Assembly: GCA_937996685.1 (NCBI GenBank)
Contig: CALKUP010000001.1
Location: 117,571-181,570, forward strand
From: an uncultured bacterium
GTDB lineage: Bacteria; Patescibacteriota; Patescibacteriia; UBA9570; XYC2-FULL-38-9
Direction: 5' to 3'
Length of the DNA stretch: 64,000 nucleotides
Every line of letters begins with the position of its first letter. Position 1 is the stretch's first letter. The position numbers and the translations under genes are program-made. The notes beneath the pieces are model-generated. The model was not told the origin of the DNA. It ran no database searches and saw nothing but the letters and a program-made list of their open reading frames with translations. Of this stretch, positions 33,635 through 56,900 are shown one piece after another.

Positions 33635-34526
33635 GTGTGTGAAATTTTAGCACAGAGTCCTCGAGTCGAACACGGCTGTCTTGGCCAGCGAGACGCTTTA
33701 ATACATCGGGCATAATACGCTGCTGCACCTTTTTGAATGTGTGCTCAAATGGAGAGGTCAGCCGTTCAAGTGTTGTTTGTATTCCGCGGTGCCATGGTTT
33801 CCAGGAGAGAGTCCGGTGTGAGACAGGGAGTGTCCATTGCAGGTCTGCGAAGGTGTGTGCGAGCCATGTGTTTTCGCTGCGAAATCGCTCATACAGCGCG
33901 TCTCGATCAAGTACCGGATAAAATTGCGTACACCAAAAATCAAAATGAATGTCACCGTCCGCATGGCGTGAGTCTTCTAAATTCAGATGATTGTCAGCGA
34001 TGTACATTGATAAACAAATGGCTTTTGCTGGATGTTGCTCGCCTGGGCGTTGCTTCAATAGTTTCATGATGCCTGCTGTGAATAAACGAGCAGTCCAAAT
34101 GTGACCCGCTTTTGCGATAATCACAATGTCGATATCACTCAACCGACGTGCATTGTTCCAGCCCATTGAATTACACAACCAAACACCGCGAACAAACGGC
34201 ATGACAGACAGCAGGCGTAATAGCGGTTTCGCGTATTGCCACTTTGTTTCGGTGAAATTGTATTTTTCATTACGTTGCTGCGCGAGCCCTTTGCGGCCAT
34301 GCAAGACATATACGCCATCAACGTGCGTCAGCCGCGGATCAGCGTCGAGGAGTTGTTGAATTTCTGACAGTCGTGGCATTGCGGAAAATTGACGTGGTCG
34401 CAATAACCATTTTTGGACATCAATCAGACTTGGGGCAAAGTCAAACATATTGCAATAGACGACTGTTGCGTATACCGCGTCAGCCCAGTGTTCAATCGGC
34501 AATGTGTGTGACGTGCCTGTTGTCAT
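33585..34526 (-). CDS. Hypothetical protein with a possible nucleotidyltransferase-fold motif.
   Basis: 313 aa. SMGWNNARRLSDIDIVII fits the hG[GS]-x9-13-Dh[DE]h pattern of the Pol-beta NTase superfamily. It overlaps the downstream gene by 50 nt. Confidence 0.35.
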   Translation of the reverse strand: MTTGTSHTLPIEHWADAVYATVVYCNMFDFAPSLIDVQKWLLRPRQFSAMPRLSEIQQLLDADPRLTHVDGVYVLHGRKGLAQQRNEKYNFTETKWQYAKPLLRLLSVMPFVRGVWLCNSMGWNNARRLSDIDIVIIAKAGHIWTARLFTAGIMKLLKQRPGEQHPAKAICLSMYIADNHLNLEDSRHADGDIHFDFWCTQFYPVLDRDALYERFRSENTWLAHTFADLQWTLPVSHRTLSWKPWHRGIQTTLERLTSPFEHTFKKVQQRIMPDVLKRLAGQDSRVRLEDSVLKFHTHDTRREIHQAFLEALR

Positions 34527-34528
34527 TG

Positions 34529-37366
34529 TTATTTCAGTAGTTTTCCAAGGTATTTGCCGGTGTAACTGCCGGCTGTTTTCGCAACTGTTTCTGGTGTGCC
34601 GGTCGCGATAATCTGCCCACCTTTATTGCCACCTTCAGGGCCGAGATCGATGATCCAGTCCGCGCATTTAATGACATCGAGATTATGTTCAATGACAAGA
34701 ATGGAATTGCCGCGATCAACCAATTCTTGCAAGACAGAGAGTAATCGTTTCACGTCCGCAAAATGCAGACCAGTAGTTGGTTCATCCAGAATGTACAGCG
34801 TTTTGCCAGTGCCTTTGCGCGCGAGTTCAGTTGCAAGTTTGACGCGTTGCGCTTCACCGCCAGAGAGGGTTGTGGCGTTTTGTCCAAGTTGGACATAGGA
34901 CAAGCCGACGGAGTTGAGGGTTTCCAGTTTTTTCGCAATCGCTGGAATGTTCGCGAAAAATTTTGCCGCTTCTTCAATAGTCATCTGCAAGACATCCGCA
35001 ATCGTTTTTTGTTTGTAGAAGATTTCTAAGGCTTGTTTGTTGTAGCGTTTGCCGTGACATTCATCACATTCAACGTAGACATCTGGCAAGAAATGCATTT
35101 CGATTTTAATGACGCCGTCACCTTGGCATTGTTCACAACGACCACCTTTGACATTGAATGAAAATCGACCAGCTTTGTAACCGCGCATTTTACTTTCTGG
35201 GAGTTCCGCAAACAGGTCACGGATTAATGTAAAGACTCCAGTGTATGTCGCAGGGTTACTGCGTGGTGTGCGGCCAATCGGGGATTGATCAATCGTGATC
35301 ACTTTGTCGATATTCTCAAGTCCAGTGATTTCTTTATGTTTTCCAGGCAAATCTTTTGAATTGAAAAAATGTTGATTCAAGGCTTTGCCGAGAATGTCTG
35401 TAACCAATGTCGATTTTCCAGATCCTGAAACGCCAGTGACTGCCGTGAACATGCCGAGAGGAATGTGCATGTCGACATTTGTGAGGTTGTTTTCTTCAGC
35501 ACCGAGAATGGCGATTTCTTTGCCATTGCCTTTACGGCGTTTTTTTGGAACTGCCACCATTTCTTTGCCGGATAAAAATTTCCCAGTAATTGATTTTGGA
35601 TTTTTTGCAACTTGTGCTGGTGTGCCACTGGCGATAACAGCGCCGCCGTGTTTTCCGGCGCCCGGTCCAATGTCGATGACGTAATCAGATGCACGAATGG
35701 TGTCTTCATCATGCTCGACGACGATGACGGTATTTCCTAAATCACGCAATGATTTCAAGGTTTCAATCAAGCGGTCGTTATCTCGTTGATGCAAGCCGAT
35801 ACTTGGTTCGTCTAAAATATAGAGCACGCCAACCAGTGAGCTACCGATTTGTGTTGCGAGGCGAATCCGTTGTGCTTCACCGCCAGAGAGCGTGGATGCA
35901 GTACGGTTGAGGGTTAAATAGGACAGTCCGACGTTATTCAAAAACGTGAGGCGTTCTGTAATTTCTTTGAAAATTTGTTTTGCAATTTGCTCGTCTTTTT
36001 TGGAGAGGGGAAGTGAGGTGAAAAATTCGAGTGCTTCTTCAATAGTAAATGCGGTGCATTGTGCAATATTGAGATTCTCAACAGTGACGCTCAGTGCTTC
36101 ATTATTTAAGCGACGACCTTCACAAGACGGGCAGGGGAAAATCCGCATATAGCGTTCAATTTCTGAGCGCATGTAATCACTTTCGGTTTCTTTGTAGCGA
36201 CGTTCCAGGTTTGGAATCACGCCTTCGTAGGTTGTTAAAAATTCGCGCACTTTTCCGTTGCCTTCGCCAGCGTTGACGTCATATGACGTGTTGCCGCTGC
36301 CATTCAAAATCAAATCCAATTGTTTTTTGGTCAGGTCTTTCACAGGAGTGAGTGTTGAAAAACCGTGGTGCAGTGCGACTGCTTCCAAAATACGCATCAT
36401 CCACGTTTGTGAACCAGCGGCTCGGTTCCATGGGCGAATTGCACCTTCTGCAATACTGAGGCGTTTATTTGGAATAATCAGGTCAGCGTCTACTTCGAGT
36501 TTTGTGCCAAGACCAGTACATGCAACACAGGCGCCATGTGGTGAGTTGAATGAAAAATTACGTGGTTCAATTTCCTGTAATGAAATGCCGCAATCATGAC
36601 ACGCGAATTGTTCGGAAAAAATTACATCTTCTTGCGTTGTCATGTTTTGCACCATCAGCAATCCATCGCCGAGGTTCAACGCGGTTTCCATTGATTCTGC
36701 AAGGCGTTGTTTGTCGATGGTTTTTTCAACAACTAAGCGATCGATAATAATATCAATGGTGTGTTTCTTTTGTTTATCAAGATCGAGGTCGAGCGCTTCA
36801 TCAACAGTATATTGAATGCCGTCGATCCGTAAACGGGCATACCCAGACTTGCGAGCTTGTTCAAAGACGGCACGGTGTTCACCTTTTTTGTCGCGAATAA
36901 TTGGCCCAAGAATCAAAATTTTTGTGCCGCCCGGCATTCCAAGAACTTGCTTCACCATTTGTTGGACTGTTTGCTTTGAAACGATTTTGCCACAATTCGG
37001 ACAATGTGGTGTTCCGATGCGGGCGTATAATAAACGTAAATAGTCGTAAATTTCAGTGACGGTTCCGACAGTGGAGCGTGGGTTGTGAGATGCAGTTTTT
37101 TGGTCAATGGAAATTGCAGGGGAGAGGCCATCGATTTGATCAACGTCCGGTTTGTCCATGAGTCCAAGAAATTGACGAGCATAGGCAGAGAGACTTTCAA
37201 CATAGCGGCGTTGTCCTTCGGCGTAGATGGTGTCAAAGGCGAGTGATGATTTTCCAGAGCCAGAGAGGCCGGTCAGAACAACAAGGGAATCACGAGGAAT
37301 ATCAACGTCAATATTTTTCAGATTGTGAACGCGTGCGCCGCGGATTTTGATCATTTCTTGAGCCAT
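34529..37366 (-). CDS. uvrA: Excinuclease ABC subunit A.
   Basis: 945 aa. Two ABC modules ([12 protein letters not shown] and [11 protein letters not shown]), zinc-finger cysteines and the [12 protein letters not shown] signatures are present. Confidence 0.96.
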
Positions 37367-37599
37367 AAAACGTGGTGGTAGTCAGTTGTATATAAGGATA
37401 GATTTTTTGAAATAGTGCCTTAGTATAGTCCGATTTTTGTGATTGGTCAACTCTTTCTGGTTCAAGGAATAATTATTGACAGATAGGGTAAAAAATCAAC
37501 AAAGACGTATTTTTCAGATCCCATCGTTTCCTGTTATTGCACGCCTTGATTGCGCCTGCCAACACACAATACCTGTGTGTTTGTTCCTTGGAGTTCATC

Positions 37600-38184
37600 A
37601 TGATCCGTTTTGTTTCCGTAGCGCTGTTTTTCTGGCTCACCCTCTACAGCGCCTCTCCTGCGTGGGCTGGCGGTGGGTGGGGTATTCCAGTGAACCCGGA
37701 ACTCTGCGCTGAAGACGGCACGCCGATGGATGCTGATGGCGACGGCATCTTCACCCACATTGAAGACAACGACGGTGATGGCGTCTCGGTCTGCTACGAA
37801 GGCAACCACCTTGTGTGGGATCAGCCGGGTTGGGTGCAGTTCATGACCGCGAACTTCACGCGGATTCAGAACAAGCCGGGTGACCTTCAGTTGTACATGC
37901 TGCAGCACATGTACACGCCCTACCTCCTGGACTGGGTATATTTCTTCCAGGAGATGACAACGGTCCGGACTCCTGGAGGCGGTCTCGGTTATTCGTTTGC
38001 CGATGTCGAAGGAGATTGTGACGACAACGATCCGAACCGCTTTCCCGGCAACTGGGAGGTGATGTTCGACGGCGTCGACGCTGACTGCAACCCGATGAAC
38101 GAGGTCTGCATTCCTGCGATTGTTCCACCTGGTTGGCCGGGGTACGCCTGGGCTGTTGGGATGAAGTATTGGGACTGTCCGTGA
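37600..38184 (+). CDS. Secreted protein with a MopE-like putative metal-binding Cys/Asp motif (GC-rich island E). It is a paralog of 40661..41188.
   Basis: GGAG lies 6 nt before the ATG. The signal peptide is MIRFVSVALFFWLTLYSASPAWA. The motif GDCDDNDPNRFPGNWEVMFDGVDADCN resembles the myxobacterial MopE-type metal-binding repeat. DxDGDG stretches are present. The gene is GC-rich. Confidence 0.5.
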   Translation: MIRFVSVALFFWLTLYSASPAWAGGGWGIPVNPELCAEDGTPMDADGDGIFTHIEDNDGDGVSVCYEGNHLVWDQPGWVQFMTANFTRIQNKPGDLQLYMLQHMYTPYLLDWVYFFQEMTTVRTPGGGLGYSFADVEGDCDDNDPNRFPGNWEVMFDGVDADCNPMNEVCIPAIVPPGWPGYAWAVGMKYWDCP

Positions 38185-38302
38185 AATCTTTGTAGACCTT
38201 CAATGGTCGCTTGTGAGCGCTGCGCATTGTTTCACATTGCCACGCTCACATCTTTCTTTAGTATATTACGTTTATTATATACCATGACGTATATCTGTAT
38301 CC

Positions 38303-38878
38303 ATGTCGTTTACAGAATATGTCAGATCTGATACACACACCCTCATGTCAACAGCGCTATTACTCACATTATTTGAACAAGAATATGAATCTGTGTATCG
38401 ATTCATCTATTTTCGCGTGTCTCACAAAGAAACCGCAGAAGATCTTGTTTCAGTGATTTTTGAAAAAGCCGTAAAACATATTGATCGTTTTTCGAAGCAG
38501 GAAGGAGCAACGCCGCGTTCATGGCTCTTTACCATTGCTCGCAACACGCTGATTGATCATTACCGTTCGCAAAAATATATTGAACCACTGGATGATCACA
38601 CGGATCTCACAGACGAATCGCATGATGCGCTATTGTCTGACATCGATACGCAGATTGTTATGGAGAAAGTCTTTGAAGTTATTCCGCAATTATCACCGCG
38701 TGGACAAGAGTTGATTTTATTACGGTTCCAAGCTGATTTTTCCAATAAAGAAATTAGTCAGATTACCGGCCTCCATGAAAAAGTTGTCGCATCTGGAATC
38801 AGCAAGGCCATCCGTCGATTACAACAACTCATTATAGAATCCAAACAACAACCATCCATTGAAGAATCTCTTTTATGA
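38303..38878 (+). CDS. ECF-type sigma-70 family RNA polymerase sigma factor (copy 1).
   Basis: Region 2 is LVSVIFEKAVKHIDRFSKQEGATPRSWLFTIARNTLIDHYR. Region 4 is LILLRFQADFSNKEISQITGLHEKVVASGISKAIRRL. 191 aa. Confidence 0.8.
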   Translation: MSFTEYVRSDTHTLMSTALLLTLFEQEYESVYRFIYFRVSHKETAEDLVSVIFEKAVKHIDRFSKQEGATPRSWLFTIARNTLIDHYRSQKYIEPLDDHTDLTDESHDALLSDIDTQIVMEKVFEVIPQLSPRGQELILLRFQADFSNKEISQITGLHEKVVASGISKAIRRLQQLIIESKQQPSIEESLL

Positions 38879-40506
38879 AACCGATTACACCCCAACATTC
38901 ATCATTCGAAGAGCAGCTCACTCGTGCATTCCATGAGCAGAGTGTTCCTGAGCACAAAGCACATCGTCGTGCGGTGTTTCAGCGCTTGCAAGAAGCAGTT
39001 GCTGTTGAACACATATCGTACTCAGAGCGATTCCGTCACTGGGTGCGTCGTCGGTTTTTATGGGTGTCTGTATCCGCTTCAACGCTTGCGCTGGCTGGTA
39101 TTCTCGTTGTGTTTTTCGGCGCACCGGTTGCTGAGCAGTACATTGCTCAGCGCCAAGGAAATACAAATTCAATTTTAGACGCGCTGGCACCTCAAGAATT
39201 ACTTGCGGAGTCAATTCAAAATACATTTGCTGCAAACGATGGCATTCGTCATGTAATGTTTCATACGGTTCGTGAAGATGTGAACACTGACAAGACAACA
39301 TCAGAAGCAAAAGAAGTGACAGCGCGCACTGATCAGGAATATTATATTGCGCCAGATGCGTTTACTGGTTTTTTGCATAAAACAGGACCAAGCGTGCAAC
39401 AAGAGAAGAGTTATCGAATGACAAAGCTAAGCGCTGATACACAATCGATTGAAAATTGTGTCATCAACATCAATATGAAAAATGCTCAGTCAATAAAAAG
39501 TGCCAATGCAGAGTTATCTGGTGAGAATGTATGTGGGTTAATGGGGATTGAAGACTATGCAGGTTTTGCAGAAACACAACCAGCGCTTGATATCCAAGAT
39601 CTTTCATACAATACAGACCTTGATAGCGAGCAGATGTCATTTACAACCGCAGAGCCAATTGATCCTAAACAACTTGGTATTTTGATTGCGGAACCGTCTT
39701 TTGTGAAATATATTTCAGAGTTTATTGATGCACAAAATAATATTGCCTTTGCTCCAATTGCATTGTCTCCACTCGGGAATGTATCTGGAGCAATTGCCGA
39801 CCCTGAATGGAATGTGCCGGTGAATGGTCGATACAAACAATCCTTCGTGTATATGTTAGATGGGCGCTATGCACATGACACCTTAACAGAAGCAACGCAA
39901 ACGCCGGTCCGCATTTTTTCTGAAGTGCAATTACAATTTGTGCAGCTCAACACAGCACTTCTTGAAGCAACGACGCTTCAAGAAAACGGCTATGATCCAA
40001 AATTATTTTCAGCTGCATCTCAAGTGTTTCAAATCAAGTTTTCTGATGAATGGAAACTTGAGAGCGTGAATGCGCTCACGCAAACACCTGAGGACATTGC
40101 GCAGTTTAACGCACGTCGGTTGGCAACACGTAAAGAAATTTTTACAAACAATTCAGGTGAAACATTTTTTAACTACATTGCAGGAGGGTCGGCAGTGTTT
40201 GCGCAACTCCATGATGTGAAGCCTCGGGTAGAGGGGAATGAGTATGTGTATAGTGTCCAGCAGGAGTGGAATCCAGATAATCCTGATATGCATATGATTG
40301 GAACAACAGAGGTGCGTGTTGATAGTCAGACTCAGCTGTTAACGGCAATTATTGAGCGGTATGACTACCCAGAAACACAGCAAGCAACGGTCTACACAAC
40401 AACCTTCGATGCACTGAAAACAACCACAGATAATACAGACACGTTTTTTTCTGAGAAGGCATGGAAAGAGCGCGCCAAGGAGATTATAAATGACTCACGG
40501 TACTAG
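38875..40506 (+). CDS. Anti-sigma-factor-like single-pass membrane protein (copy 1).
   Basis: Its start overlaps the sigma gene's stop by 4 nt (ATGA). It has an N-terminal cytoplasmic segment, one TM helix (LWVSVSASTLALAGILVVFFGAPV) and an extracytoplasmic domain of about 450 aa. It is paralogous to 41884..43527. Confidence 0.5.
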   Translation: MKPITPQHSSFEEQLTRAFHEQSVPEHKAHRRAVFQRLQEAVAVEHISYSERFRHWVRRRFLWVSVSASTLALAGILVVFFGAPVAEQYIAQRQGNTNSILDALAPQELLAESIQNTFAANDGIRHVMFHTVREDVNTDKTTSEAKEVTARTDQEYYIAPDAFTGFLHKTGPSVQQEKSYRMTKLSADTQSIENCVININMKNAQSIKSANAELSGENVCGLMGIEDYAGFAETQPALDIQDLSYNTDLDSEQMSFTTAEPIDPKQLGILIAEPSFVKYISEFIDAQNNIAFAPIALSPLGNVSGAIADPEWNVPVNGRYKQSFVYMLDGRYAHDTLTEATQTPVRIFSEVQLQFVQLNTALLEATTLQENGYDPKLFSAASQVFQIKFSDEWKLESVNALTQTPEDIAQFNARRLATRKEIFTNNSGETFFNYIAGGSAVFAQLHDVKPRVEGNEYVYSVQQEWNPDNPDMHMIGTTEVRVDSQTQLLTAIIERYDYPETQQATVYTTTFDALKTTTDNTDTFFSEKAWKERAKEIINDSRY

Positions 40507-40660
40507 AATTGATAAAAAAGCCCTGAAATATGGGCTTTTTTGGTATTCATACGTACTTTTGCATATCCATCGTTGTAGTGTATGCAGTCGTGATTCGGCG
40601 ATTGTGTACCTTGAGATCACCTTTCAGCGACCAAGATCGCTCATTGCAACTGGAGTTCTC

Positions 40661-41188
40661 ATGCTTCCCATGTTTTTGGCATTCCTCGCAAACCACACCG
40701 ACCCGCAGATTTTCCAGGTGGTAGGCGACGCGCTTGTCACCGCTCCTTCGGATGGCTGCCTCATTGAGCAAAATGTCTGGGTCGACCTCGACGGCGACTT
40801 CCACTTCCAGCATTGGGAGGATCGGGACCTCGACGGCTACGGAAACTGCTACGACGAGCAGGGCCGAGTTGCCTGGATGTTTCCGGGTCTCGCTCGTGAG
40901 TTCACCGTGAATTTCGGTGACTACATGAACCACGCTGCGCAGGCACGTGCGCATTGGCCGTTGGGTCTCGCGATGCTCCCGATGAATGCTCCGGAGCAGT
41001 TCAATCTGCCCTGGACCATGCCGGGTTGGAGCTTCTGGTTTGATCCGATCACGCATCGGCAATACTTGAACTTCCAGGAAGCGATGGCGGGAGATTGTGA
41101 TGACAGCGATCCGAATCGATTCCCGTATAACCAGGCTGACGTGCCGGGTGACGGGTTCGACGAGAACTGCAGCCCCTTCGATGAGTAA
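40661..41188 (+). CDS. Secreted MopE-like metal-motif protein (GC-rich island F). It is a paralog of 37600..38184.
   Basis: GGAG lies 5 nt before the ATG. The ORF-track start at 40490 is AT-rich sequence overlapping the upstream gene, and GC-rich coding begins near 40660. The motif is GDCDDSDPNRFPYNQADVPGDGFDENCSP. Its architecture is similar to 37600. Confidence 0.5.
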   Translation: MLPMFLAFLANHTDPQIFQVVGDALVTAPSDGCLIEQNVWVDLDGDFHFQHWEDRDLDGYGNCYDEQGRVAWMFPGLAREFTVNFGDYMNHAAQARAHWPLGLAMLPMNAPEQFNLPWTMPGWSFWFDPITHRQYLNFQEAMAGDCDDSDPNRFPYNQADVPGDGFDENCSPFDE

Positions 41189-41367
41189 AAAGCCTCTCAT
41201 GTGAGAGGTCAGAGTGACACGCTCTGTGATCCGTGCCCTGTTGCGCTTTGCTATCAATAGTTGAGCGCAGCAGATTTTCTTAGTACAAATCCGCGTTCAT
41301 GTTTTTAGAATGCATATTGTACACACCATACTCTGCAGAGTATACTTCACATAATTAACCTATCAGC

Positions 41368-41877
41368 ATGACGCTTGAACAAATCGCCGCGCTATTCGAC
41401 ACGTATCACAAACCGATTTATCGTTTTGTGTATTTACGTGTGAATCACATGGAAACAACCGAAGATTTGGTCTCTGCGATTTTTGAAAAAGTCGTTCGGC
41501 ATTATGATGCGCTTGCGCCAAAAAATGACGAGCTCGCATTTCGCAAATGGATTTACACCATTGCACGCAATACAGTGATCGACTACTATCGCACACAAAA
41601 GCAGACAGACGATATCGCGGATTATGATGTCGTTGACACGGCGCAGATGCCAGACATTGCACTCGACACCGCGATGAATCTGGAAATGCTGCAAAGCCAT
41701 CTTGGGGCTCTGACTGACCGACAACGTGAAGTGCTCTTGTTGCGATACCAGTCCGATTTTTCAAATGTGGAAATTGCGGAGATGCTCGACATTGATCAAA
41801 AAACAGTCAGCAGTATCTTGAGTCAAGCGATCAAACGTTTAAAAAACAGTGTTCAATCCGTTCAATCAATTGTGTAA
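41368..41877 (+). CDS. ECF-type sigma-70 family sigma factor (copy 2).
   Basis: Region 2 is LVSAIFEKVVRHYDALAPKNDELAFRKWIYTIARNTVIDYYR. Region 4 is VLLLRYQSDFSNVEIAEMLDIDQKTVSSILSQAIKRL. 169 aa. Confidence 0.8.
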   Translation: MTLEQIAALFDTYHKPIYRFVYLRVNHMETTEDLVSAIFEKVVRHYDALAPKNDELAFRKWIYTIARNTVIDYYRTQKQTDDIADYDVVDTAQMPDIALDTAMNLEMLQSHLGALTDRQREVLLLRYQSDFSNVEIAEMLDIDQKTVSSILSQAIKRLKNSVQSVQSIV

Positions 41878-41883
41878 TTTTTT

Positions 41884-43527
41884 ATGAAACACCAACCATC
41901 ACAATTTGAAGAATCACTCGAGCAGCTATTACAGGCTACTCCGATTCCAGAACGAGCAGACCACACTGCAGAGTTGCGTGCACGCGTGTTGAACGACTAT
42001 CGTGAACGCCAGGTCCGTTATGCTGAACCAAAATTATCTTTTATGAATACAGTATTTCCACGTCTCTTTCTTGCAACCAGCGGCGCCGTTTCTGTCCTTG
42101 CAATAGGATTTGTCATTTTCAACCAACCGGTTGTTCAAACACAAGTCGCAAAACTGCGCGGCAATAGCAATGTAAACACTCCAACACATTCACTGCTATC
42201 TCAGCTGTCACCGAAAGAAGTACTAGCTGATTCACTAGCCGCAACAATCGGCGAGTTGAATGACACATCACAGTCGCACTATGTACATATGAAAACAACG
42301 TCAAAAAGTACAGATGGCACGATTGACTCGACAATTGATTTTCAATCATGGAAAGAGGGGCTTAATGTGCGCGTCAAAACAACGGATACAGATCACGTGA
42401 ATAATACAACTGGCATGACAACGCAACTCACTTCGTATGAGGCTGACGAAACGTCATGGAATTGTGTTGCTGATACAACCGGGACGGTGAGTGGCCCAGG
42501 TTACGATAATAATTCAGGTGTCTGCTTTCACTATGGAGCTCCTCAAGAATATAATCGTCAAGTATATACAAGTGCTCCAAGTCTCAGTTTAGAGAGTGTA
42601 TCCGCAACAGCTGCCCGTGCTGGAGACACGGTCGGTCCGACACAGCGAATCACAGTGACATTTCGTACAACGCAGCCATTATCGAATGAGGCGCTGATTG
42701 AATCCGTCAATTCTGATATTGCTGATTTAGGTGATGTCGTTTCCGGTGGTAACTTTTTTAACCATTCAGATGGATTGCTGCCGACAGAATATAATGCAAA
42801 AAAAGTGGGCGATCAATATGAGTACCGTGTTGTTATGGATCAAGCGTATGATATGCGAGGCGATGCTCCGACTGGATCTCAGACTTCGAAAGATACGCGA
42901 CGAAATTACATTCAAATTCTTGATGGCAATGCACATAGTCCGGTCTATCAAGTGAATATTGATACTGGTGATATCACGGAATTAACCACCGTTCAATTAC
43001 AACAATTAGTGTCCGCACAGCAACAAGCAAAGCGCGAAAAAGCACAACAGCAAGCAGGGCAAGTCACGCTGGCATCTGGATATGATCCATATGCTGATTT
43101 GCAAAACATCTATACAACCATGGAAAAAAATGGCCAAATTATAGATAGTGCAGAAGTGCAAGGTGATGATACAACTTTGTTGAAAGTTCATTATCGATAC
43201 ACAGAAATATACGGACCGCAGATTCCACAAGAAGAGGTTGATCGTCGTCTCAAAGAATCTCCATATACTGAAGTGAATATTTTTGTGGATTTAAAGACAA
43301 AAGAAGTGGTGCGTGTTGAGTATGTATTGCTGCCTTGGACACAAAACACATATACCACAGAGATTATTGAGTCAGCGTCCGTGGGCCCAGAAGAGTCAGG
43401 GCAATTGCTTGGTCCAGATCCGTTTACAATCGATACATGGAAAAACGAAACCCGTGATCTCTATAGCGAGCTCTATCCAGATCGTGGTGAGATTCAATTC
43501 ACCATGAAAGATATCGGCGAGTATTAA
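41884..43527 (+). CDS. Anti-sigma-factor-like single-pass membrane protein (copy 2).
   Basis: Same architecture as copy 1, with the TM helix LFLATSGAVSVLAIGFVIFNQPVV. It lies 6 nt after the sigma gene. Confidence 0.5.
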   Translation: MKHQPSQFEESLEQLLQATPIPERADHTAELRARVLNDYRERQVRYAEPKLSFMNTVFPRLFLATSGAVSVLAIGFVIFNQPVVQTQVAKLRGNSNVNTPTHSLLSQLSPKEVLADSLAATIGELNDTSQSHYVHMKTTSKSTDGTIDSTIDFQSWKEGLNVRVKTTDTDHVNNTTGMTTQLTSYEADETSWNCVADTTGTVSGPGYDNNSGVCFHYGAPQEYNRQVYTSAPSLSLESVSATAARAGDTVGPTQRITVTFRTTQPLSNEALIESVNSDIADLGDVVSGGNFFNHSDGLLPTEYNAKKVGDQYEYRVVMDQAYDMRGDAPTGSQTSKDTRRNYIQILDGNAHSPVYQVNIDTGDITELTTVQLQQLVSAQQQAKREKAQQQAGQVTLASGYDPYADLQNIYTTMEKNGQIIDSAEVQGDDTTLLKVHYRYTEIYGPQIPQEEVDRRLKESPYTEVNIFVDLKTKEVVRVEYVLLPWTQNTYTTEIIESASVGPEESGQLLGPDPFTIDTWKNETRDLYSELYPDRGEIQFTMKDIGEY

Positions 43528-43548: not shown

Positions 43549-43578
43549 GTCCATACAAACCGTCACACATGTGGCGGT
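43549..43578 (+). terminator. Terminator-like hairpin after the second sigma/anti-sigma pair.
   Basis: aaaccgtc...ggcggttttt: a stem of about 7 bp (one mismatch) plus a T5 run. It overlaps the ORF-track start of 43569, which argues that uvrC starts at 43620. Confidence 0.4.
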
Positions 43579-43619
43579 TTTTGGTTGCCAAATCACTCAC
43601 GCTACCTTATATATACACT

Positions 43620-45254
43620 ATGGAGACACAGCAACCAGCAGATACAATTGCAAAGCTTGTTCAAGCACTTCCGATGAAGCCGGGTGTGTATCAGTTTTTT
43701 GATGCAGCTGGAAAGTTGTTGTATGTCGGTAAGGCGGTGAAATTGCGGTCACGTGTGCAATCCTATTTTCGCTCAAGCACAAATCATTCGCCAGCCAAAC
43801 AGTTTATGGTTGGAAAAATTGCGGATATCAAAACAATTACTGTCGACACAGAAGCCGAGGCATTACTGCTCGAAACAACACTGATTAAAAAACACAAACC
43901 GCCGTATAACATTGTCATGAAGGATGACAAAAATTTTCAATATATTCATATCACCGACGATCCGTTTCCGCGTATTGAAACAGTGCGTCAGTTGCCGAGT
44001 CTCGGAAAACGGCGCGGGAAATATTTTGGGCCGTATGTGTCCGGCTTTGCGGTGAAAAAAACCTTGCGGACAATGCAGATGGTGTTTCGATATTGCACAA
44101 CTCCTCCAGAAGTGAAGCGTGGTGTTGTGGTCTATCCGAAGCGACCGTGTTTGCAATACCAATTGGGGCGTTGTGTCGGGCCGTGCGCGCAAGCAGTGTC
44201 ACAAGAAGAATATGCAATCATATTTCGTGATATCGCTCGCATGCTCGCAGGCGACACAGAATATGTGATCGCTGATTTGCGTGAGCGAATGCAACAGGCG
44301 AGCGCCGCAAAACGGTTTGAAAAAGCAGCGGAATTACGTGATCAGCTGCAAGCGCTCGACCGATTATTTTTTGATCAAAAAGTGGTTGATGTCCGTGAAC
44401 AGTCGGTTGATGTCTTGTCACTGGCTCGAGTTGATGACACAGCGGCGGTGAATGTCTTTATTGTTCGTCATGGTCGATTGATTGCGCAGAATGTATTTTT
44501 ATTGCGACACGTGAAAGATCAATCTGATGATGATGTGCTCGAAGCGTTTCAAGATCAGTATTATCAAACAGCGCTTGAAAAACCAAAAGACATCATGACC
44601 AATCGGCAAGAGCGGCGTGGGAAAAATAAACAGTTGCTCGAAATGGGAGAAGCCAATGCATTGCAGGCGCTTGAAAATCATCTCGCCCGGTTTGAAAAAG
44701 AAGATAAACGCGCAAAACAGGGAATTGCGGAGCTCGCGACTGCTTTGGAGACGACTCCAGAAAAACTACATCGTATTGAAGTCTATGATATCTCACACAA
44801 TCAAGGTGCGTACACTGTTGCGTCGATGATTGTGTTTGTTGATGGCCGACCAGCGCCAAGCGAATATCGCAAATTCAAAATTCGAAGCGCGCGTGGAACA
44901 GGGAAGTCAGATGATTTTGCATCAATGCGTGAAGTGATCAATCGTCGCGTGAAACATATTAAGCGGAAACAAAAAGATATTGCCGATCCGTGGCCAACAC
45001 CAAGTTTGATTGTCATCGATGGAGGGAAAGGGCAGTTGTCATCCGCAAAAGCGATGCTTGATATCGCACATTTAGACATCCCAATTATTTCGCTTGCCAA
45101 GCGCATTGAAGAAATATTTTTGCCAGAAAATTCAACGCCGATTTTGTTGCCACGTGATTCGCAAGGGCTGTATTTGATGCAGCGTATGCGTGACGAAGCG
45201 CATCGATTTGCCATTGGGTTTTATCGAAAACGTCATTTAGCGGGATTAGTATAG
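43620..45254 (+). CDS. uvrC: Excinuclease ABC subunit C.
   Basis: The GIY-YIG domain is KPGVYQFFDAAGKLLYVGKAVKLRSRVQSYF. The UvrBC motif and C-terminal RNaseH-like/HhH region are present. The start is taken as METQQP. Confidence 0.9.
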   Translation: METQQPADTIAKLVQALPMKPGVYQFFDAAGKLLYVGKAVKLRSRVQSYFRSSTNHSPAKQFMVGKIADIKTITVDTEAEALLLETTLIKKHKPPYNIVMKDDKNFQYIHITDDPFPRIETVRQLPSLGKRRGKYFGPYVSGFAVKKTLRTMQMVFRYCTTPPEVKRGVVVYPKRPCLQYQLGRCVGPCAQAVSQEEYAIIFRDIARMLAGDTEYVIADLRERMQQASAAKRFEKAAELRDQLQALDRLFFDQKVVDVREQSVDVLSLARVDDTAAVNVFIVRHGRLIAQNVFLLRHVKDQSDDDVLEAFQDQYYQTALEKPKDIMTNRQERRGKNKQLLEMGEANALQALENHLARFEKEDKRAKQGIAELATALETTPEKLHRIEVYDISHNQGAYTVASMIVFVDGRPAPSEYRKFKIRSARGTGKSDDFASMREVINRRVKHIKRKQKDIADPWPTPSLIVIDGGKGQLSSAKAMLDIAHLDIPIISLAKRIEEIFLPENSTPILLPRDSQGLYLMQRMRDEAHRFAIGFYRKRHLAGLV

Positions 45255-45269
45255 TGTGTTCAATAAACG

Positions 45270-45295
45270 CAGGCTTGAAAAAAGCCTTGTTTTGT
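45270..45295 (+). terminator. Terminator after uvrC.
   Basis: Stem aggctt / aagcct followed by a T-rich tract. Confidence 0.5.
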
Positions 45296-45333
45296 GATAG
45301 AATAGATATAATTGCAAAATAAAAAGAAAAAAT

Positions 45334-46764
45334 ATGGCAAATCCAGAAGGAAAAGGACCACGTGCGCAGGTGGCAAAGCCAGTGCAAGTAGAAAAAATAA
45401 AACCAGCTGATTTGACGCATCCTGATTGGGATCGTTTAGACTTAGGTGAAGCATGGAATCAACCAACTGTTGCCGATGAAGTCGCTCAAGCAGATAAAAT
45501 GTTGACACAAGCTCGAGAGACTCTTCGAGATCGACGCCAAGATGAAAAAGTAGTTGCTCGCGCATATGCATCAGTAGATGCGAAGTCGCGTCAGGCTGCA
45601 GTTGGAACAACAGAATCATTTGATGTTGGAGATTTTCCTGATGATAGACCGCTTCCATTACTCGGTGAAGAAGATGATGAAACAGAGGATACATTTCAAT
45701 CGTTAGATGATGGTCCAGTTATTGACTTACCTGAGAAACGCAAAGCAAAAGATTTGCGTAAGCAAGGGCCAAAAACAGAATTACGAGAACCGCCAACACG
45801 AGAAGAGCGTGCAGCAGCTCGTGTATTTGAGATGCCAGCGTCGTCAATTGTAGAGCCTGCTGCAGTTGCGCCGATGCCAGAAGTTGCTCCACGCGCCTCT
45901 GAAGTCGCTTCTACTGAATTAGAGTGGATGACCGTTGAAGAAGCGGCGCCACTATCACAGTCTTTAGGCTTGTTTGATCGAGTAAAACAGGCAGCGTCTC
46001 AATTTACAAAACGTTGGAGTCGACGCTTTGCAGTGATTGGTGCATTGCTCGCACAGCCAGCAGCAGAAAAGCCGATTACAATGCCACAACCGCAAGAACA
46101 CATTGATGCAGTGCCTCAAGAAGCAGCGCCTGCGCCTGTTGTTGCGGAGGTCGCTCCAGTAGTACCAACACCAGAAGTTGTTCCAGTAGTGCCTCAAGCG
46201 CCTGAAGTGAGTGTGACAGTTCCAGTTGAATTGCCAGCCCAAGGCGTTGTGAGCATGCCGCGTGTTGACACTGCTTCATCAGCGCCAATAAAGACAACAT
46301 TGCCTGCAGCTGCTGCGCATATTGATGTTCGTGCGCCTCTACCTCAGGCTTCAGAAAAGCCACAAGTAGCGCCGAGTCCTGTAACAATCCCGCAACCTGC
46401 ACCTGATACAAATCCAGCAACCCGACCGACAGCTGATGCTGCTGCTCCAAAGCCGCCAGTCGTTGCGCCGGAGGTTCCAGCAACTCGTGAAGAATTGGCA
46501 AAACAAATGAATGCAGAATCACATGTTGATCAACTGTCTCCAGCAAAACAAATTGCCTATCTTGATAGCTTGTTTGATCAAACCGACGCGTCAAAACTCT
46601 TTTTACGCTTGAGTCCAACAAAACGTTTAGAAGTGTCTCGTGATTCACGTGGTGAATTATTTATTAAAACAGCGCGAGAAGGGAAGATTGAGCCATTAAC
46701 AGAAGAGGTCGTTGAAAAGATTGGAAAAAACTTGGCAGCATTGCGATATACCGTCGGTCGATAA
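45334..46764 (+). CDS. Hypothetical Pro/Ala/Val-rich protein.
   Basis: 476 aa with a long low-complexity PAPVVAEVAPVVPTPEVVPVVPQAPEV linker. No catalytic motif was seen. Confidence 0.5.
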   Translation: MANPEGKGPRAQVAKPVQVEKIKPADLTHPDWDRLDLGEAWNQPTVADEVAQADKMLTQARETLRDRRQDEKVVARAYASVDAKSRQAAVGTTESFDVGDFPDDRPLPLLGEEDDETEDTFQSLDDGPVIDLPEKRKAKDLRKQGPKTELREPPTREERAAARVFEMPASSIVEPAAVAPMPEVAPRASEVASTELEWMTVEEAAPLSQSLGLFDRVKQAASQFTKRWSRRFAVIGALLAQPAAEKPITMPQPQEHIDAVPQEAAPAPVVAEVAPVVPTPEVVPVVPQAPEVSVTVPVELPAQGVVSMPRVDTASSAPIKTTLPAAAAHIDVRAPLPQASEKPQVAPSPVTIPQPAPDTNPATRPTADAAAPKPPVVAPEVPATREELAKQMNAESHVDQLSPAKQIAYLDSLFDQTDASKLFLRLSPTKRLEVSRDSRGELFIKTAREGKIEPLTEEVVEKIGKNLAALRYTVGR

Positions 46765-52011: not shown

Positions 52012-53835
52012 ATGATGAAGCTCATCTCTCGGAATGCCTTCGCGATCCTCTTCGTCACCCTCGCGGTGGCGTGCGGCTTTCTCCCTGATACGATCGGGGG
52101 AACCGGGCTGCACCCGGTCGCGGCCGACACGGTCGACACGACGGACGACGTCCGCACTGACGACACGCCGTCGTCGGACATCGTCGGTGTTCACACGACG
52201 AATACCAACGTCGGCAACACCGACACGGTCGACACGACGGACGACACCGACATCACGCCGGACACCGGCACGGACCTCCTCCCTGTCACCGGCGACACGC
52301 CGGCTGACACGGACATCGTCGACACGACGGACACGACGGACACGACGGACACGACCGAGCCCGTCGACACCGACGTGACGTGGTCCGAGACGGATCCACC
52401 CGCAGATGACCAGTTCCCGCCCTACGCGTTCGTAGGCTACGGGCACTACCAGTTCTGTGGCGACCCCGCGATCCCGTGGGAGCCCTGTCTTCAGAACCGG
52501 GTGGTCTACGGACGCCCGCTCCAGGAGCGTCCTGCCGCCTGTGTTCCTGGAAACCAGTACGCTCCTGGGGAGCTTTCGAGCGACGTGCTCGTCTGCTTTC
52601 TGGACTACTTCCGCGGCCAGATCCACGGTGTCATCTCTGTTTTTAACCCGGCGACGCACGCCTGGTCCGACCTGCCGAATGGCGGGCCTACCAACTTCGT
52701 GCAAGCGGGACTCGTCGAGCAGCGTGGTGCTGTTCAAACGAGTCAAGTCAGCTCGTTCCTCTTTGCTCAGCTCGAGCCGGGGAGCGAGCAGATCTCGCTG
52801 ATCGTCCGGAGCCCCAACGGCCCGCTCATGCGGCGCGGGGCAAACGGCGTTTGGTCGCAAGACCGCGCCTTCTTCACTGCCTGGCAGGCCGCCGGCATGG
52901 CGCAGATGAGCGAGTCGATCGTCCGGGACTTTGACCGCAACGGTCTCCCGGACATCGGGATGATGCGCTGCCTCCAAGGCAACTGCGACCCGGTGATTTT
53001 CTACCAGACGGCGCCTGGCGCCTGGCAGAGCTCAATGAACGTGACCCGCATCCCGTACAAGTCTTCGGATGTGTACGAGTGGGACGCGATTCAGGACTCT
53101 GCAACCGGCGCTTGGACGCTCGTCGCTGCTGGCGGTTTCACCGACATGCAGCGCGCCGGCTCCAGCGGCATCTTCGTAGAATACGGGACCGGGCCCGACG
53201 GCTTCCCGGCGTACGTCGAGGCCAATGGTACGAATGCCGCCGGAATGGCCGGAATGGGTGTGACCCATTTCGACCCCCGCGGCATCGACGCCGCTGGCAA
53301 CTCCACGCCGTTCCCGGACGGTCAACCGGAGATCATCGTCTCCAGTCAAACCCAGTGTCCAGAGATGTTGCAAAGCCTCTTCGGCTGGGCTGGGGTGGAT
53401 TCGTGGGTCAACCTGACCCCGAACTACTCCAACTGGATCCAGCAAGGAGGGCGCTTTCGCCCTGGCTGCTGGGAAGACGCGACCCCGGAAACTGAGGATC
53501 TCGCCTGGGGCGTGGAACTCGTCCTTGAGGACTTGCTGCTCGTCGCCAAGGGCGACGACGGCCGAGTTCTTCCGACGGGTCACTGCGACCGAGCCGAGTG
53601 CCCTCAGGACGGCGAGCCGATCATCGGCTACAAGCCGTGGCACGGACGCTTCTGGGCGTATCCGCTCGGGCGCCTGCAGTTTGTCGACCCCTTGGGGAAC
53701 GACATTCTGCTGGGCAACCGGCGGACGCTCGACGTCCACTACGTCACCGGCGCCGACGGCGTCACCCGCACCGTCGTCGTGACGGGTGGCACCTGGGAAA
53801 ACGGCAATCCTGAAGTTTGGCTGCTCGAGGAGTAA
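52012..53835 (+). CDS. GC-rich lipoprotein-like secreted protein with Thr-Asp repeats (island G).
   Basis: GGAG lies 6 nt before ATGATG. The lipoprotein-like signal is MMKLISRNAFAILFVTLAVAC. Repeats of the TTDTTDTTD / VDTTDD type come from tandem gtcgacacgacggac DNA units. An FG-GAP-like segment (DRNGLPDIGM) is present. GC is strongly elevated. Long minus-strand ORFs here are artefacts. Confidence 0.55.
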   Translation: MMKLISRNAFAILFVTLAVACGFLPDTIGGTGLHPVAADTVDTTDDVRTDDTPSSDIVGVHTTNTNVGNTDTVDTTDDTDITPDTGTDLLPVTGDTPADTDIVDTTDTTDTTDTTEPVDTDVTWSETDPPADDQFPPYAFVGYGHYQFCGDPAIPWEPCLQNRVVYGRPLQERPAACVPGNQYAPGELSSDVLVCFLDYFRGQIHGVISVFNPATHAWSDLPNGGPTNFVQAGLVEQRGAVQTSQVSSFLFAQLEPGSEQISLIVRSPNGPLMRRGANGVWSQDRAFFTAWQAAGMAQMSESIVRDFDRNGLPDIGMMRCLQGNCDPVIFYQTAPGAWQSSMNVTRIPYKSSDVYEWDAIQDSATGAWTLVAAGGFTDMQRAGSSGIFVEYGTGPDGFPAYVEANGTNAAGMAGMGVTHFDPRGIDAAGNSTPFPDGQPEIIVSSQTQCPEMLQSLFGWAGVDSWVNLTPNYSNWIQQGGRFRPGCWEDATPETEDLAWGVELVLEDLLLVAKGDDGRVLPTGHCDRAECPQDGEPIIGYKPWHGRFWAYPLGRLQFVDPLGNDILLGNRRTLDVHYVTGADGVTRTVVVTGGTWENGNPEVWLLEE

Positions 53836-53900: not shown

Positions 53901-53992
53901 TTAGTATTAGCCTCTTAAAACAACTGTTTGATTTTTTTCTTGTATCGTGTTATAATCATTCTATTGTGAGGAGTAAAAATAGATATAAAAAA

Positions 53993-56900
53993 ATGCGTTT
54001 TTCTGGAAAATTTTTTACAGCAATTTCAACACTTTTCCTCTCAGTGTTGTTTTTTTCAGCTGTGCCACTGTCCGCGCAAGCCGCAACCTCAACCTTTACA
54101 GTCAATAACGCGAATGATTCAGGAGCTGGCTCACTTCGCCAAGCAATTACAGATTGTAGTGCTCTTGGTGGCAGTGATGATTGTGTTATTTCCTTAGAAA
54201 ATAGCGGCGGAACTCAAACCTTGAATCTTGTTTCAGCATTGCCAGTATTAACTCGTCCAGCAGTATTTTCGAATGCTGGTGTTGATACGGACTTATTAAT
54301 CAATGGAGCATCAGCCTCTGGTAGCTATTGTTTGCGTATTGAAAGTGGCGTCAATGGCTCGGTCCATACAATCGTCGAAGGCTTGGCGTTTACAAGTTGT
54401 CCAACTGCAGCAATTGTGGTGGCGAATGTTTCAACAGATGTCCAAATTGGAAACACAAATTCAGCTTCTGATATTGTCAGTATTTTTAGTGGTTCAAAAG
54501 GTATTAAAGTTGATGGCGATAATGCAGTGATTCAAAACACTGTTTTTGGTGTAAATCTTTCAAACGCAGCAGCTGGTCAATCCGGGAACTCTATTGATGT
54601 GTCTTCATTCGCGAGTAATGTCACAATTGACAGCGTTACGTCAAAAAATGCCACAACACCAAATATCAATATTGACACTGTTTCAACCGTTTCAATTACA
54701 GACAGTCTCATTGCTGACTCAACATCAAACTCTATTCGTTTGTTGAGTGTGACAAACGCGACAATGAGCGGTAATACAATTACAAATGCCGGAGGCGTAT
54801 TTATTTCAGGTGGTAGTTCGTTTGTGATTACAAACAATACAATTACAAATACTTCAACAAATGGGACGTATCGCGCGTTTACATTTGCGGGATCTGTATC
54901 AGACGTGCAATTAGGGGCAGCGTCATCAACAAATATTGCGACTGACGGAAATGTCATGTCTGTTGCGGCTTCTCCGGTAATTTCTGCTGGCGCTGCAATC
55001 CTGACAAACTTTCAAGCAGCATTTAATCTGTCATTTCAATCGAGCAACACAAATTACTTGTCATATGATTCTGGCATGGAGCCATTTACTGTGCCATCAA
55101 GTCTCGTTGCGACAACAACAAGTATCGCTGGTACCGCTGGTGTCAGTTCTGGAACGGTTAGTGCGTATCAAAATGGTGTGTTTGTTGGTTCAAAAGCGTT
55201 GTCTGGAACGTCTTTTACATTTTCAGGAGGTGATTTAAACACGACGCTTACTGGAGGTGCGAATATTGTTGTGTTAGTGCGTAATACATCAGGAACTCCA
55301 ACATCAACATCAACCGTTGTTGCGTTTGATGGCTTGGTGTCTTCGTTTAGTGTGACGCCGTCTGGTACGTCAGCAAACTTTTCTTTCTCATCAACTGAAA
55401 CAATTACACCAAAAGTGTATATCGCAACTTCAGAAGGTGGTCTTTCGGGCGCAACACCAACCAATGGAACTCTTGGAACTAGCCATTCAGTGAATGTGAC
55501 AGGATTGTCTGGCAGCACGTTGTATTACTACCGCCTTGATACTGTCAGTGCCGCAGGCTCACAAACACGAACCGGCGCTCAATCAGGAACCTTTACAACA
55601 AGCTTTTCTGGAGCAATCTCCAGTTTGTCTGTAACGCCAGCTGCAACGTCAGCAAATTTTTCCTTTTCATCTACTGAGACATTAACGCCAAAGATTTACG
55701 TTGCTACATCATTAGGTGGTTTGTCTGGTGCGACACCAGTGAATGGAACTCTTGGAACAACCCATTCTGTAAACGTGACAGGTCTCACTGTTGGTGTGTT
55801 GTATTATTATCGTATTGATGCCGTTGCGTCTGATGGAACAACAACGGTAACCGGTGTGTCGTCGAGTACATTTACAACCGTTGATAATGTTGCTCCTGTA
55901 TTACAGTCCTTTACAACGTCCTCAATTAGTGGTCGATATGGTCCTGGAGCGGTGATTACAATTACAGCGACATATAATGAGACGATTAATGCGTCGTCGA
56001 CAATGCAGATTACGCTCAATAATTCTGGAACAGTAAGCTTGAGTGGGGTTGGTTCAACAGCAACATTAACTGGAACATATACTGTGCCCTCAACAGGAGC
56101 TGGAGGAGGAACAGCAGATTTAACAGTATCGTCAATTAATTCTGAAGGTGTTGTTGATCTTGCTGCGTCTCCAAACACACGGACAAATTCATCTGTTCCA
56201 TCGGGTTCGAATAATATTGGAGGAGCAAAAGATTTGGTTATTGATACAACTGTGCCGACAATTTCTGAAATAACAGCTGTCACAACACCGACAAATGACA
56301 CAACGCCAAATTATGTATTTACAACAAATGAAGCCGGAACAATTGCATTTACGCTCGGCAGTTGTCGCAGTGCAACCACCAGTGCAACCAGTGGAAGTAA
56401 CACGATTACGCTTGATTCAAATGGTTCTGGTGGCGCGCTTGCTGATGGGGCTTACACAAACTGTCGTTTAACAGTGACTGACCTGGTTGATTTTGGTTCA
56501 GGAAATACAAGTGCAGCATTATCTCTGACGTCTTTTACTATTGCAACAACAGCTCCAGCGTTGACTCAATTTGCAACCCTCACTTCCAGTGGTACATATA
56601 CAACCGGTCAAACAATTTTGGTCGGTGCCCAATTTGCGAGAACACTGAACTCGGCATCAACAATGACGGTTCGTTTAACAAACGGTGTTGAAGTTGACTT
56701 GGTCTATAATCCGGCATACGGCGGAAATATTATTGCTGGAAACTATACGATCGGAGACGCGGCTTCTGGAGAAGATGATTCAGATTTGCAAATTGCAAGC
56801 ATTGTTTCATATTCAATTATTGATACACTAGGCAATTCAACAACAACGCCACCGTCAATTGTTGGTATTACGCAGTTAAGAAGTGCAATGAGCGGTCTTG

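Follow-up and report, generated by a model that had tools for sequence, protein, structure and literature searches.

A 64-kb stretch of DNA from an uncultured bacterium of the Patescibacteriota (contig CALKUP010000001.1 of assembly GCA_937996685.1; GC content 44.5%), called the window below, has two consecutive three-gene modules between the uvrA and uvrC genes. Each module has a gene for a small Cys/Asp-motif protein (mopE1 in module 1, mopE2 in module 2), a gene for an extracytoplasmic function (ECF) sigma factor (sig1, sig2) and a gene for a membrane protein which is a putative anti-sigma factor (as1, as2). The duplication of the ECF module is real and ancestral, and its partner proteins form a new family. 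With a probability of about 0.55, I read it as an old tandem duplication of an ECF unit consisting of a promoter, a small secreted Cys/Asp protein, an ECF sigma factor, and a single-pass membrane anti-sigma factor, in which the small proteins would be induced outputs. The small secreted protein is lineage-specific and is best explained as a dispensable ECF-regulated output rather than as a horizontally acquired metal sensor.

Two tandem modules between uvrA and uvrC

Six open reading frames (ORFs) lie on the forward strand between uvrA (34529-37366, reverse strand) and uvrC (43569-45254, forward strand). In module 1, mopE1 (37600-38184) encodes a secreted protein of 194 aa with a DxDxDG loop, four Cys residues that are invariant in its family, and a C-terminal PF11617 motif. 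It is followed by sig1 (38303-38878; 191 aa as annotated) and as1 (38875-40506), which encodes a single-pass membrane protein of 543 aa with a transmembrane (TM) segment at about residues 60-91 and an ectodomain of ~450 aa. In module 2, mopE2 occupies 40661-41188 (ATG start, 175 aa) or 40604-41188 (GTG start, 194 aa). It is followed by sig2 (41368-41877; 169 aa) and as2 (41884-43527), which encodes a single-pass protein of 547 aa with a TM segment at about residues 60-84.

The original prediction of a tandemly duplicated three-gene cassette with diverged paralogous pairs was confirmed, including its ORF coordinates. The mopE1 and mopE2 proteins are 36% identical (E = 7e-16) and the sig1 and sig2 proteins 41% identical (E = 1e-42). 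For as1 and as2, BLASTP aligns the first ~146 aa only, at 30% identity, and the global identity is ~22%; a C-terminal F-x-x-x-x-W-K motif is common to both in a multiple alignment. Four related contigs were read, namely L001 (GCA_964492735.1), L004, L085, and the contig encoding the protein P0023. Both sigma/membrane pairs are found between uvrA and uvrC in L001. The duplication is older than the split of the window and relative lineages. The arrangement of three genes goes back to the ancestor and is peculiar to this family. An ATGA overlap of the sigma and membrane genes had been described for both modules. It is present in sig1/as1, but sig2 and as2 are 6 nt apart, and this gap is kept in L001.

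Both sig1 and sig2 have the sigma2 and sigma4 domains only and lie above the TIGR02937 cut-off of 42.9 bits, as expected of group 4 (ECF) sigma factors; the predicted ECF identity was thus verified. The scores for Sigma70_r2, Sigma70_r4_2, and TIGR02937 are 63.9, 35.6, and 90.1 bits for sig1 and 46.6, 47.2, and 105.4 bits for sig2. The best NCBIfam match is the BldN family (TIGR02952), yet the scores (118 and 115 bits) stay below its equivalog cut-off of 206. The annotated ATG of sig1 at 38303 falls within the promoter-like motif described below, and the alignments of sig1 to sig2 and to its L001 counterpart (sig1′) begin at M15, which corresponds to ATG 38345. Thus, the true start is probably ATG 38345, giving a protein of 177 aa.

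A promoter-like motif shared by the small genes and the sigma genes

The pattern ACGTWY-N13-TCGTY has three exact matches in the 64 kb, all on the forward strand and preceding mopE1, sig1, and mopE2. Only 0.24 matches are expected, and none of 100 shuffled sequences reached three. With one mismatch allowed, the pattern gives background only (8 matches vs 8.5 expected). The first copy (ACGTAT-N13-TCGTT, 37505-37528) lies 72 nt before the mopE1 ATG and has an orthologous site upstream of the mopE gene in L004. The second copy (ACGTAT-N13-TCGTT, 38287-38310), which was not among the sites defining the pattern, lies 35 nt before ATG 38345; the motif is retained at the orthologous sites of L001, L004, and L085, although these have diverged. 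The third copy (ACGTAC-N13-TCGTT, 40551-40574) lies upstream of mopE2; in L001, which has lost mopE2 by deletion, this site is found 75 nt before sig2′. The two matches in L001 precede sig1′ and sig2′. L002, L004, and L085 also have the motif where it is expected (in L004, before mopE as well as before the sigma gene), while no match was found in 80 unrelated loci. In five diverged instances, both boxes are kept although the 13-nt spacers are completely different and the flanks unrelated. The distance to the start codon is 30-35 nt for sigma genes (sig1 being counted from ATG 38345) and 69-87 nt for mopE genes.

ECF sigma factors are usually autoregulated, and I read the motif as their putative cognate promoter. 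Its geometry fits ECF promoters, since its boxes are 15-16 nt apart and spacers of 15-18 nt are used in two-block ECF promoters (PMC7776599). The same motif stands before mopE1, mopE2, the L004 mopE gene, and the sig1-type genes, and it is absent elsewhere. Since the motif is common to mopE and sigma genes, the mopE genes are likely to be members, or outputs, of the regulon. The upstream regions of mopE1 and mopE2 have the motif and the Shine-Dalgarno/start context in common. In mopE1, GGAG lies 7 nt before the ATG. A hairpin in the 5′ untranslated region (37561-37581, forward strand), just upstream of this GGAG, is kept in L004 with an apparent compensatory C-G to T-A change (by eye).

Terminator-like structures follow each mopE gene. 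Downstream of mopE1, there is a hairpin (GTGAGCG...CGCTCAC) with a T-rich tail at 38212-38260 on the forward strand (RNA fold z = -3.4). Downstream of mopE2, there are three consecutive hairpins on the forward strand (41192-41282; -52.2 kcal/mol, z = -5.8), the last of which is followed by ATTTTCTT. A strong terminator hairpin flanked by an A-run and a T-run (40513-40542; no strand assigned; -20.8 kcal/mol, z = -5.9) follows as1 and is conserved in L001. The hairpins after each mopE suggest that the mopE genes and the sigma/membrane genes form separate transcription units. A sigma-70-like promoter (TGTACA-17-TATACT, 41318-41346, forward strand) lies directly upstream of sig2 and is also conserved in L001.

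These elements can be assembled into a circuit. The membrane protein would hold the sigma factor via its cytoplasmic N-terminal segment of ~30-60 aa. An envelope signal would be read by the ~450-aa ectodomain, and the sigma factor would be released. The free sigma factor might then transcribe from the ACGTAY-N13-TCGTT promoters. In module 1, one such promoter would drive mopE1, which has its own terminator, and another would drive sig1-as1. In module 2, the motif before mopE2 would supply mopE2, while read-through of the hairpins and the sigma-70-like promoter, as a basal promoter, may supply sig2-as2. The small proteins would be dispensable accessories induced by the circuit, not its sensor.

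The small genes are repeatedly lost in relatives

The gene order in L001 is uvrA, a GC-rich ORF for a secreted protein of 328 aa, sig1′, as1′, sig2′, as2′, and uvrC; no mopE gene is present. The nucleotide identity between the window and L001 is 76% in the uvrA block (window positions 34011-37345), 81% in the as1 ectodomain block (39160-40595), 91% in the block of sig2 and the as2 N-terminus (41329-41979), and 84% in the uvrC block (43578-45470). The mopE2 block of 733 bp (40596-41328) corresponds to only 14 bp in L001.

L004, a small contig, is very close to L001, as its sigma factor differs from the L001 sig1′ at a handful of residues (by eye). It has a mopE1-type gene (encoding P0058, 36% identical to mopE1; 0.75 GC at third codon positions, GC3), followed by an ATGA-coupled sigma/as pair. 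At the mopE position, L004 and L001 differ by a clean indel (776 bp vs 51 bp). In L085, all that remains of a mopE1-type gene, joined to an L004-like upstream region, is its final 44 codons (75% identical to P0058). At the junction there is a short microhomology (AACAGCGAT / ACAACGAT), and an intact sigma/as pair comes next. The motif before this mopE remnant has decayed from ACGT to ATGT.

At first, the 733-bp and 776-bp indels were taken for recent insertions of mopE cassettes. This was ruled out by P0023, which is an orthologue of mopE2, by the mopE1-type gene in L004, and by the 44-codon remnant in L085. Thus, the mopE absences are deletions, and the small genes are repeatedly lost while the sigma/membrane pairs persist. 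The original prediction made the small gene the sensor or ligand component of each circuit. Since L001 has kept its pairs intact without either small gene and L085 has an intact pair with a remnant only, an essential sensor role is argued against. The refuting outcome named in the original prediction, relatives that have the pairs beside unrelated neighbours, is in part seen in L001.

The tandem arrangement is not universal, or is interrupted in L085, where the as1-type gene is followed by two small ORFs of normal GC content with signal-peptide-like N-termini (L085 positions 2751-3099) and not by the second sigma module.

The small proteins form a family of four

I searched ~15 billion proteins for relatives of the small proteins; HMMER was run exhaustively over 1.84 billion representatives, and the 90% clusters (5.8 billion clusters) were searched with a profile. 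The family has four members: mopE1, mopE2, P0023, and P0058. The other listed matches, roughly 550, have only the ~30-aa motif inside large multi-repeat proteins. A metagenome scan for further members likewise gave only PF11617-motif or repeat matches, with no sig1/sig2-related neighbour at any locus. Three of the four members, i.e., all three with readable DNA, are encoded directly upstream of an ECF sigma gene in a low-GC context. The gene for the fourth, P0023 (42% identical to mopE2), is on a 1.3-kb contig and is followed by a same-strand gene 183 nt downstream. No link between PF11617 and ECF sigma factors was found in a literature search.

The alignment of the family has four invariant Cys residues, the DxDxDG loop (EDNDGDG / EDRDLDG), and a GDCDDxDPxRFP...DGxDxxC motif. 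The latter, the PF11617 motif, is C-terminal in both mopE1 and mopE2 and invariant across the four members. The motif hit expected of the small proteins was obtained for mopE1 (28.8 bits, gathering cut-off 27); mopE2 taken alone stays under the cut-off (22.7 bits), yet it is homologous to mopE1. The DxDxDG loop and the PF11617 motif are ~75 aa apart in this family, while they are adjacent in canonical multi-repeat proteins. To judge from the alignment, each family protein resembles a single PF11617-type repeat unit (DxDxDG...C...GDCDDxD...DGxDxDC) interrupted by an insert of ~75 aa. The small proteins evolve fast: identity between orthologues is no more than 36-42%, compared with 87% for uvrA.

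Both small proteins had been called secreted. This is convincing for mopE1, with a signal peptide MIRFVSVALFFWLTLYSASPAWA and a cleavage site before GG. The signal peptide of mopE2 is weak if translation starts at ATG 40661, which matches the start of its homologue and has a Shine-Dalgarno GGAG 6 nt before it, and strong from GTG 40604, which gives the same length as mopE1; the export of mopE2 is thus a prediction that depends on the start. The public mopE2 call (P0013, 232 aa) starts at ATG 40490 and runs over the end of as1 and its terminator, and this start is unlikely. From these sequence features, the small proteins are probably Ca2+-binding, disulfide-stabilised, fast-evolving extracellular proteins.

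The original prediction likened the small proteins to MopE and suggested metal sensing. This likeness did not hold. Only residues 15-46 (32 residues) of genuine MopE (PDB 2vov) align with the family, with E = 0.034, and the alignment does not extend over the MopE* domain including its Cu site, as membership in MopE/CorA would require. The copper site of MopE (two His and kynurenine) lies outside the PF11617 motif. Moreover, PF11617 covers a small part of MopE/CorA and is not specific for these copper proteins (PMC6189053). The small proteins are not MopE homologues, and nothing specific speaks for their sensing copper or another metal.

Membrane partners with a mosaic conservation

No Pfam family matches as1 or as2, and their N-terminal 110 aa have no match even at E ≤ 10, including zf-HC2, RskA, and other class I-III anti-sigma domains. 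No relative was found in the PDB. Thus, the anti-sigma likeness ascribed to these large proteins has no counterpart in a recognisable domain. The as1 family consists of three cluster representatives, including as1 itself, in the collection of 5.8 billion clusters, and a genome-collection scan with it returned the L001 contig only. A five-sequence alignment of the as family was too divergent for use. The membrane partner is a new protein family.

The as proteins are putative anti-sigma factors on the basis of sigma-gene coupling, topology, and co-variation. The as gene lies directly downstream of the sigma gene with an ATGA overlap or a 6-nt gap, and these arrangements are kept in L001, L004, and L085, as expected of translational coupling. 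Exactly one hydrophobic segment (residues ~60-85) is present in all four membrane proteins, and basic residues precede it (by inspection), as in single-pass proteins with a cytoplasmic N-terminus.

The two modules differ in what is conserved between the window and L001. In module 1, sig1 is 50% identical, as1 residues 1-90 are 23-43% identical, and the as1 ectodomain is 60-93% identical. In module 2, sig2 is 95% identical and as2 residues 1-30 are 83% identical, while the as2 ectodomain (10-30%) cannot be aligned. The conservation of the sigma factor follows that of the N-terminus of its partner, and the ectodomains go the opposite way. It appears from these comparisons that the sigma factor and the first ~30-90 residues of its partner have one evolutionary history and the ectodomain another. 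Such co-variation is what a sigma-binding N-terminal segment would predict. The mosaic points to separate modules that were exchanged or evolve very fast.

Composition and origin of the small genes

The original prediction noted that the first gene of each module looks foreign in composition while the sigma and as genes look native. This contrast is real; GC3 is 0.70 for mopE1 and 0.72 for mopE2, against 0.366 ± 0.064 for native ORFs (n = 30), corresponding to z = 5.2 and 5.5. The frequency of A at third codon positions (A3) is 0.06-0.08 in the mopE-type genes, whose GC3 is 0.70-0.75, against a native A3 of 0.31; this resembles the codon usage of a high-GC genome. Two simple causes were rejected. 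GC at second codon positions is hardly raised in the mopE genes, which excludes amino-acid composition, and rpoB, rpoC, and groEL have a GC3 of 0.32-0.37, which excludes expression-linked codon bias.

The same signature is found in other GC-rich islets. The GC3 is 0.85 at 13621-14025, 0.81 at 52012-53835, 0.70 at 3-455, 0.66 at 676-1074, and 0.81 at 6519-7505 of L001. In the six islet ORFs analysed, A3 is 0.05-0.08, and GGAG or GAGG stands 5-7 nt before each ATG; in contrast, a Shine-Dalgarno site is lacking in 27 of 30 native ORFs. The four islets in the window have no Pfam match, and the two tested against PHROG (13621-14025 and 52012-53835) have no match there either. These two ORFs have clear starts with a strong GGAG Shine-Dalgarno sequence. 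The latter encodes 607 aa with a lipoprotein-like LAVAC signal.

The islet in L001, located between uvrA and sig1′, is the 328-aa secreted ORF (67% GC). The end of this ORF is also found upstream of the mopE remnant in L085. The public annotation of L001 has two minus-strand ORFs there (6582-7055 and 7242-7622), probably on the wrong strand. Thus, such islets affect gene calling.

Could the small genes be horizontally acquired high-GC islets that landed, or were repeatedly replaced, beside the sigma genes, with an incidental or secondary link to the ECF factors? Besides the codon usage, the GGAG sequences, and the like signature in the unrelated islets at 13621-14025, 52012-53835, and 6519-7505 of L001, this is favoured by the contigs of the longer PF11617 matches, which have 61-73% GC (eight measured), and by the variable presence of the small genes among close relatives. 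I nevertheless consider it unlikely. No donor or full-length homologue outside the lineage was found among the 1.84 billion representatives and 5.8 billion clusters. There are no tRNA, Rfam, or PHROG matches in the window, and the 607-aa islet ORF, the sole ORF compared with plasmids, had no plasmid match. A repeat scan and boundary alignment gave no convincing flanking direct or terminal repeats. Neither an integrase nor a target-site duplication came to light, though no search was aimed at them. The absences are deletions, one of them with a remnant. The upstream region of mopE has a native composition and the motif of the module itself, and orthologues agree more closely there (66%) than in the coding sequence (54% at the nucleotide and 36% at the amino-acid level). 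In addition, the high GC3 is found in both mopE paralogues and one orthologue despite saturated divergence, and by the logic of Lawrence and Ochman it would have persisted beyond the expected amelioration.

Thus, a simple recent transfer of the mopE family is unlikely, given the lack of donor and mobility features, the native and conserved regulatory region, the high GC3 despite saturated divergence, and the lack of expression-linked bias. The acquisition of a sensor or ligand gene by transfer, as originally proposed, is not supported, in view of the same evidence together with the family size of four and the deletions. The small genes may have come from a foreign source long ago and have ameliorated slowly, may have undergone repeated allele replacement from an unsampled high-GC pool, or may have a composition maintained by selection or a biased process.

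A broader idea is tentative, and I would sooner doubt than accept it. There may be a gene class, apparently with mostly exported products, that holds high-GC codons (GC3 0.70-0.85, A3 ~0.06) and strong Shine-Dalgarno sequences through long divergence in an AT-rich genome largely without Shine-Dalgarno sites; the mopE genes would be its members on native ECF promoters. If true, this would mean a second, gene-class-specific regime of coding and translation, kept by selection or a biased process. Alternatively, alleles would be continually imported from an unsampled high-GC partner (e.g., a host) into fixed, natively regulated slots. Foreign-looking codons and Shine-Dalgarno sequences that a lineage-restricted family has kept across paralogues and orthologues, behind native promoters, and that recur in other small genes of this genome, are not easily reconciled with transfer and subsequent amelioration alone. 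If general, this bears on how composition-based detection of horizontal transfer is interpreted.

Sensor, output, or bystander

Another possibility is that the small protein, in the periplasm or outside the cell, binds a ligand and acts together with the anti-sigma ectodomain (cf. CnrX-CnrY and RseB-RseA); it would possibly sense a metal and have been recruited from a foreign source. The mopE gene is strictly adjacent to the sigma/membrane genes in every family member that can be examined, the Cys/Asp motif is annotated as 'putative metal-binding', the composition is atypical, and the as2 ectodomain of the genome with mopE2 cannot be aligned with that of the genome from which mopE2 was lost. 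The idea is doubtful all the same. The pairs are intact in L001 with both small genes deleted, and in L085 with a remnant only. In the as1 ectodomain, conservation is 60-93% when a genome that has mopE1 is compared with one that lacks it. Only the 30-aa motif, which is not copper-specific (PMC6189053), is in common with MopE, no donor was found, and terminator-like hairpins of its own stand behind each mopE gene. Quite improbable is the third alternative, in which the motif serves an unlinked transcription factor as its operator, or was simply inherited via the duplication, and mopE and the sigma genes are mere neighbours: the boxes do form direct CGTW repeats ~19-20 nt apart, a spacing typical of response-regulator sites too, and the pattern was derived post hoc, but the boxes are retained though spacers and flanks have diverged beyond recognition, the motif stands solely before mopE or sigma genes at 30-35 or 69-87 nt from the start, and it has decayed before the mopE pseudogene in L085.

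Several points weigh against the reading of the locus as a duplicated ECF unit with induced outputs. The promoter assignment is made from sequence, with a pattern defined post hoc from four sites, and the boxes (ACGTA / CGTT) lack the common AAC core of the -35 element; they could be direct-repeat binding sites for another regulator. No motif lies immediately upstream of sig2 in the window, so that autoregulation there would need read-through of three hairpins. No anti-sigma domain was detected in as1 or as2 in Pfam or the PDB, and the AlphaFold models, each from a 4-sequence alignment, are unusable (pLDDT, the model's confidence score, 39 for mopE1 and 36.5 for as1). The complete difference of the as2 ectodomain between the genome with mopE2 and the genome without it (n = 1) also fits a co-sensor role. 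Finally, an output role leaves the GC3 of 0.70-0.75 and the Shine-Dalgarno sequences unexplained in a genome mostly without both; this persistent signature is the one real puzzle of the locus.

Comparison with known systems

The locus resembles the autoregulated ECF operons sigW-rsiW of Bacillus subtilis and rpoE-rseA of Escherichia coli in its two-domain (sigma2 and sigma4) sigma factor, in the translationally coupled single-pass membrane protein encoded downstream, and in the bipartite promoter-like motif before the sigma gene and a neighbour gene. In contrast to these operons, the membrane partner here has no recognisable anti-sigma domain and an ectodomain of ~450 aa of no known family, the boxes are ACGTA / CGTT instead of AAC / CGT, and the unit is tandemly duplicated along with a gene for a small secreted protein.

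CnrYXH and NccYXH of Cupriavidus (ECF291; PMC7826278) also combine an ECF sigma factor with a membrane anti-sigma factor, whose short N-terminus binds the sigma factor, and with a small extracytoplasmic protein; a metal link is proposed. The order there is anti-sigma factor, sensor, and sigma factor, and CnrX is the essential Ni/Co sensor. In the present locus, the small gene stands at the front and is followed by a terminator of its own; its product does not resemble CnrX in sequence, and relatives can do without it.

MopE and CorA of methanotrophs share the ~30-aa Cys/Asp motif (PF11617) with the small proteins, with no similarity beyond the MopE* residues given above. Large multi-repeat PF11617 proteins of high-GC bacteria (e.g., P0028 and P0045) share the DNDGDGY...GDCDDxDxxxxPG...DG(I/V)DxDC unit. 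However, they have 5-30 tandem repeats in 500-3500 aa and no sig1/sig2-related gene nearby. Phage 'morons' and small islets are likewise self-contained promoter-ORF-terminator units of atypical composition that vary between conserved genes. In contrast, there is no phage or mobile context here, the motif is that of the host module, and the variation is explained by deletion. For the study of ECF signalling, the locus adds a compact duplicated module from an uncultured lineage, with an uncharacterised partner family, a candidate promoter motif, and a candidate output gene.

Other features of the window

A TTGACA-17-CATACT promoter-like site is followed by what appears to be a leader of ~150 nt (13440-13620) of the GC-rich ORF of 134 aa at 13621. 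This leader contains a GGTTGCAGG...CCTGCAACC hairpin and has no Rfam match. Immediately after the 607-aa islet ORF, 53966-59230 encodes what is probably a giant surface protein, which is repetitive, rich in Ser/Thr/Ala, 1754 aa long and equipped with a signal peptide. Many large ORFs are without a Pfam match, and a TrmB-type regulator is present. In the region 1687-8990, the RpoB protein (1120 aa) scores higher against RpoB structures (PDB) of Firmicutes, cyanobacteria, and actinobacteria than against that of E. coli. TATAAT-like boxes often lie within ~10-15 nt of start codons (e.g., of those at 24248, 29355, and 53966), which suggests that leaderless or short-leader mRNAs are widespread.

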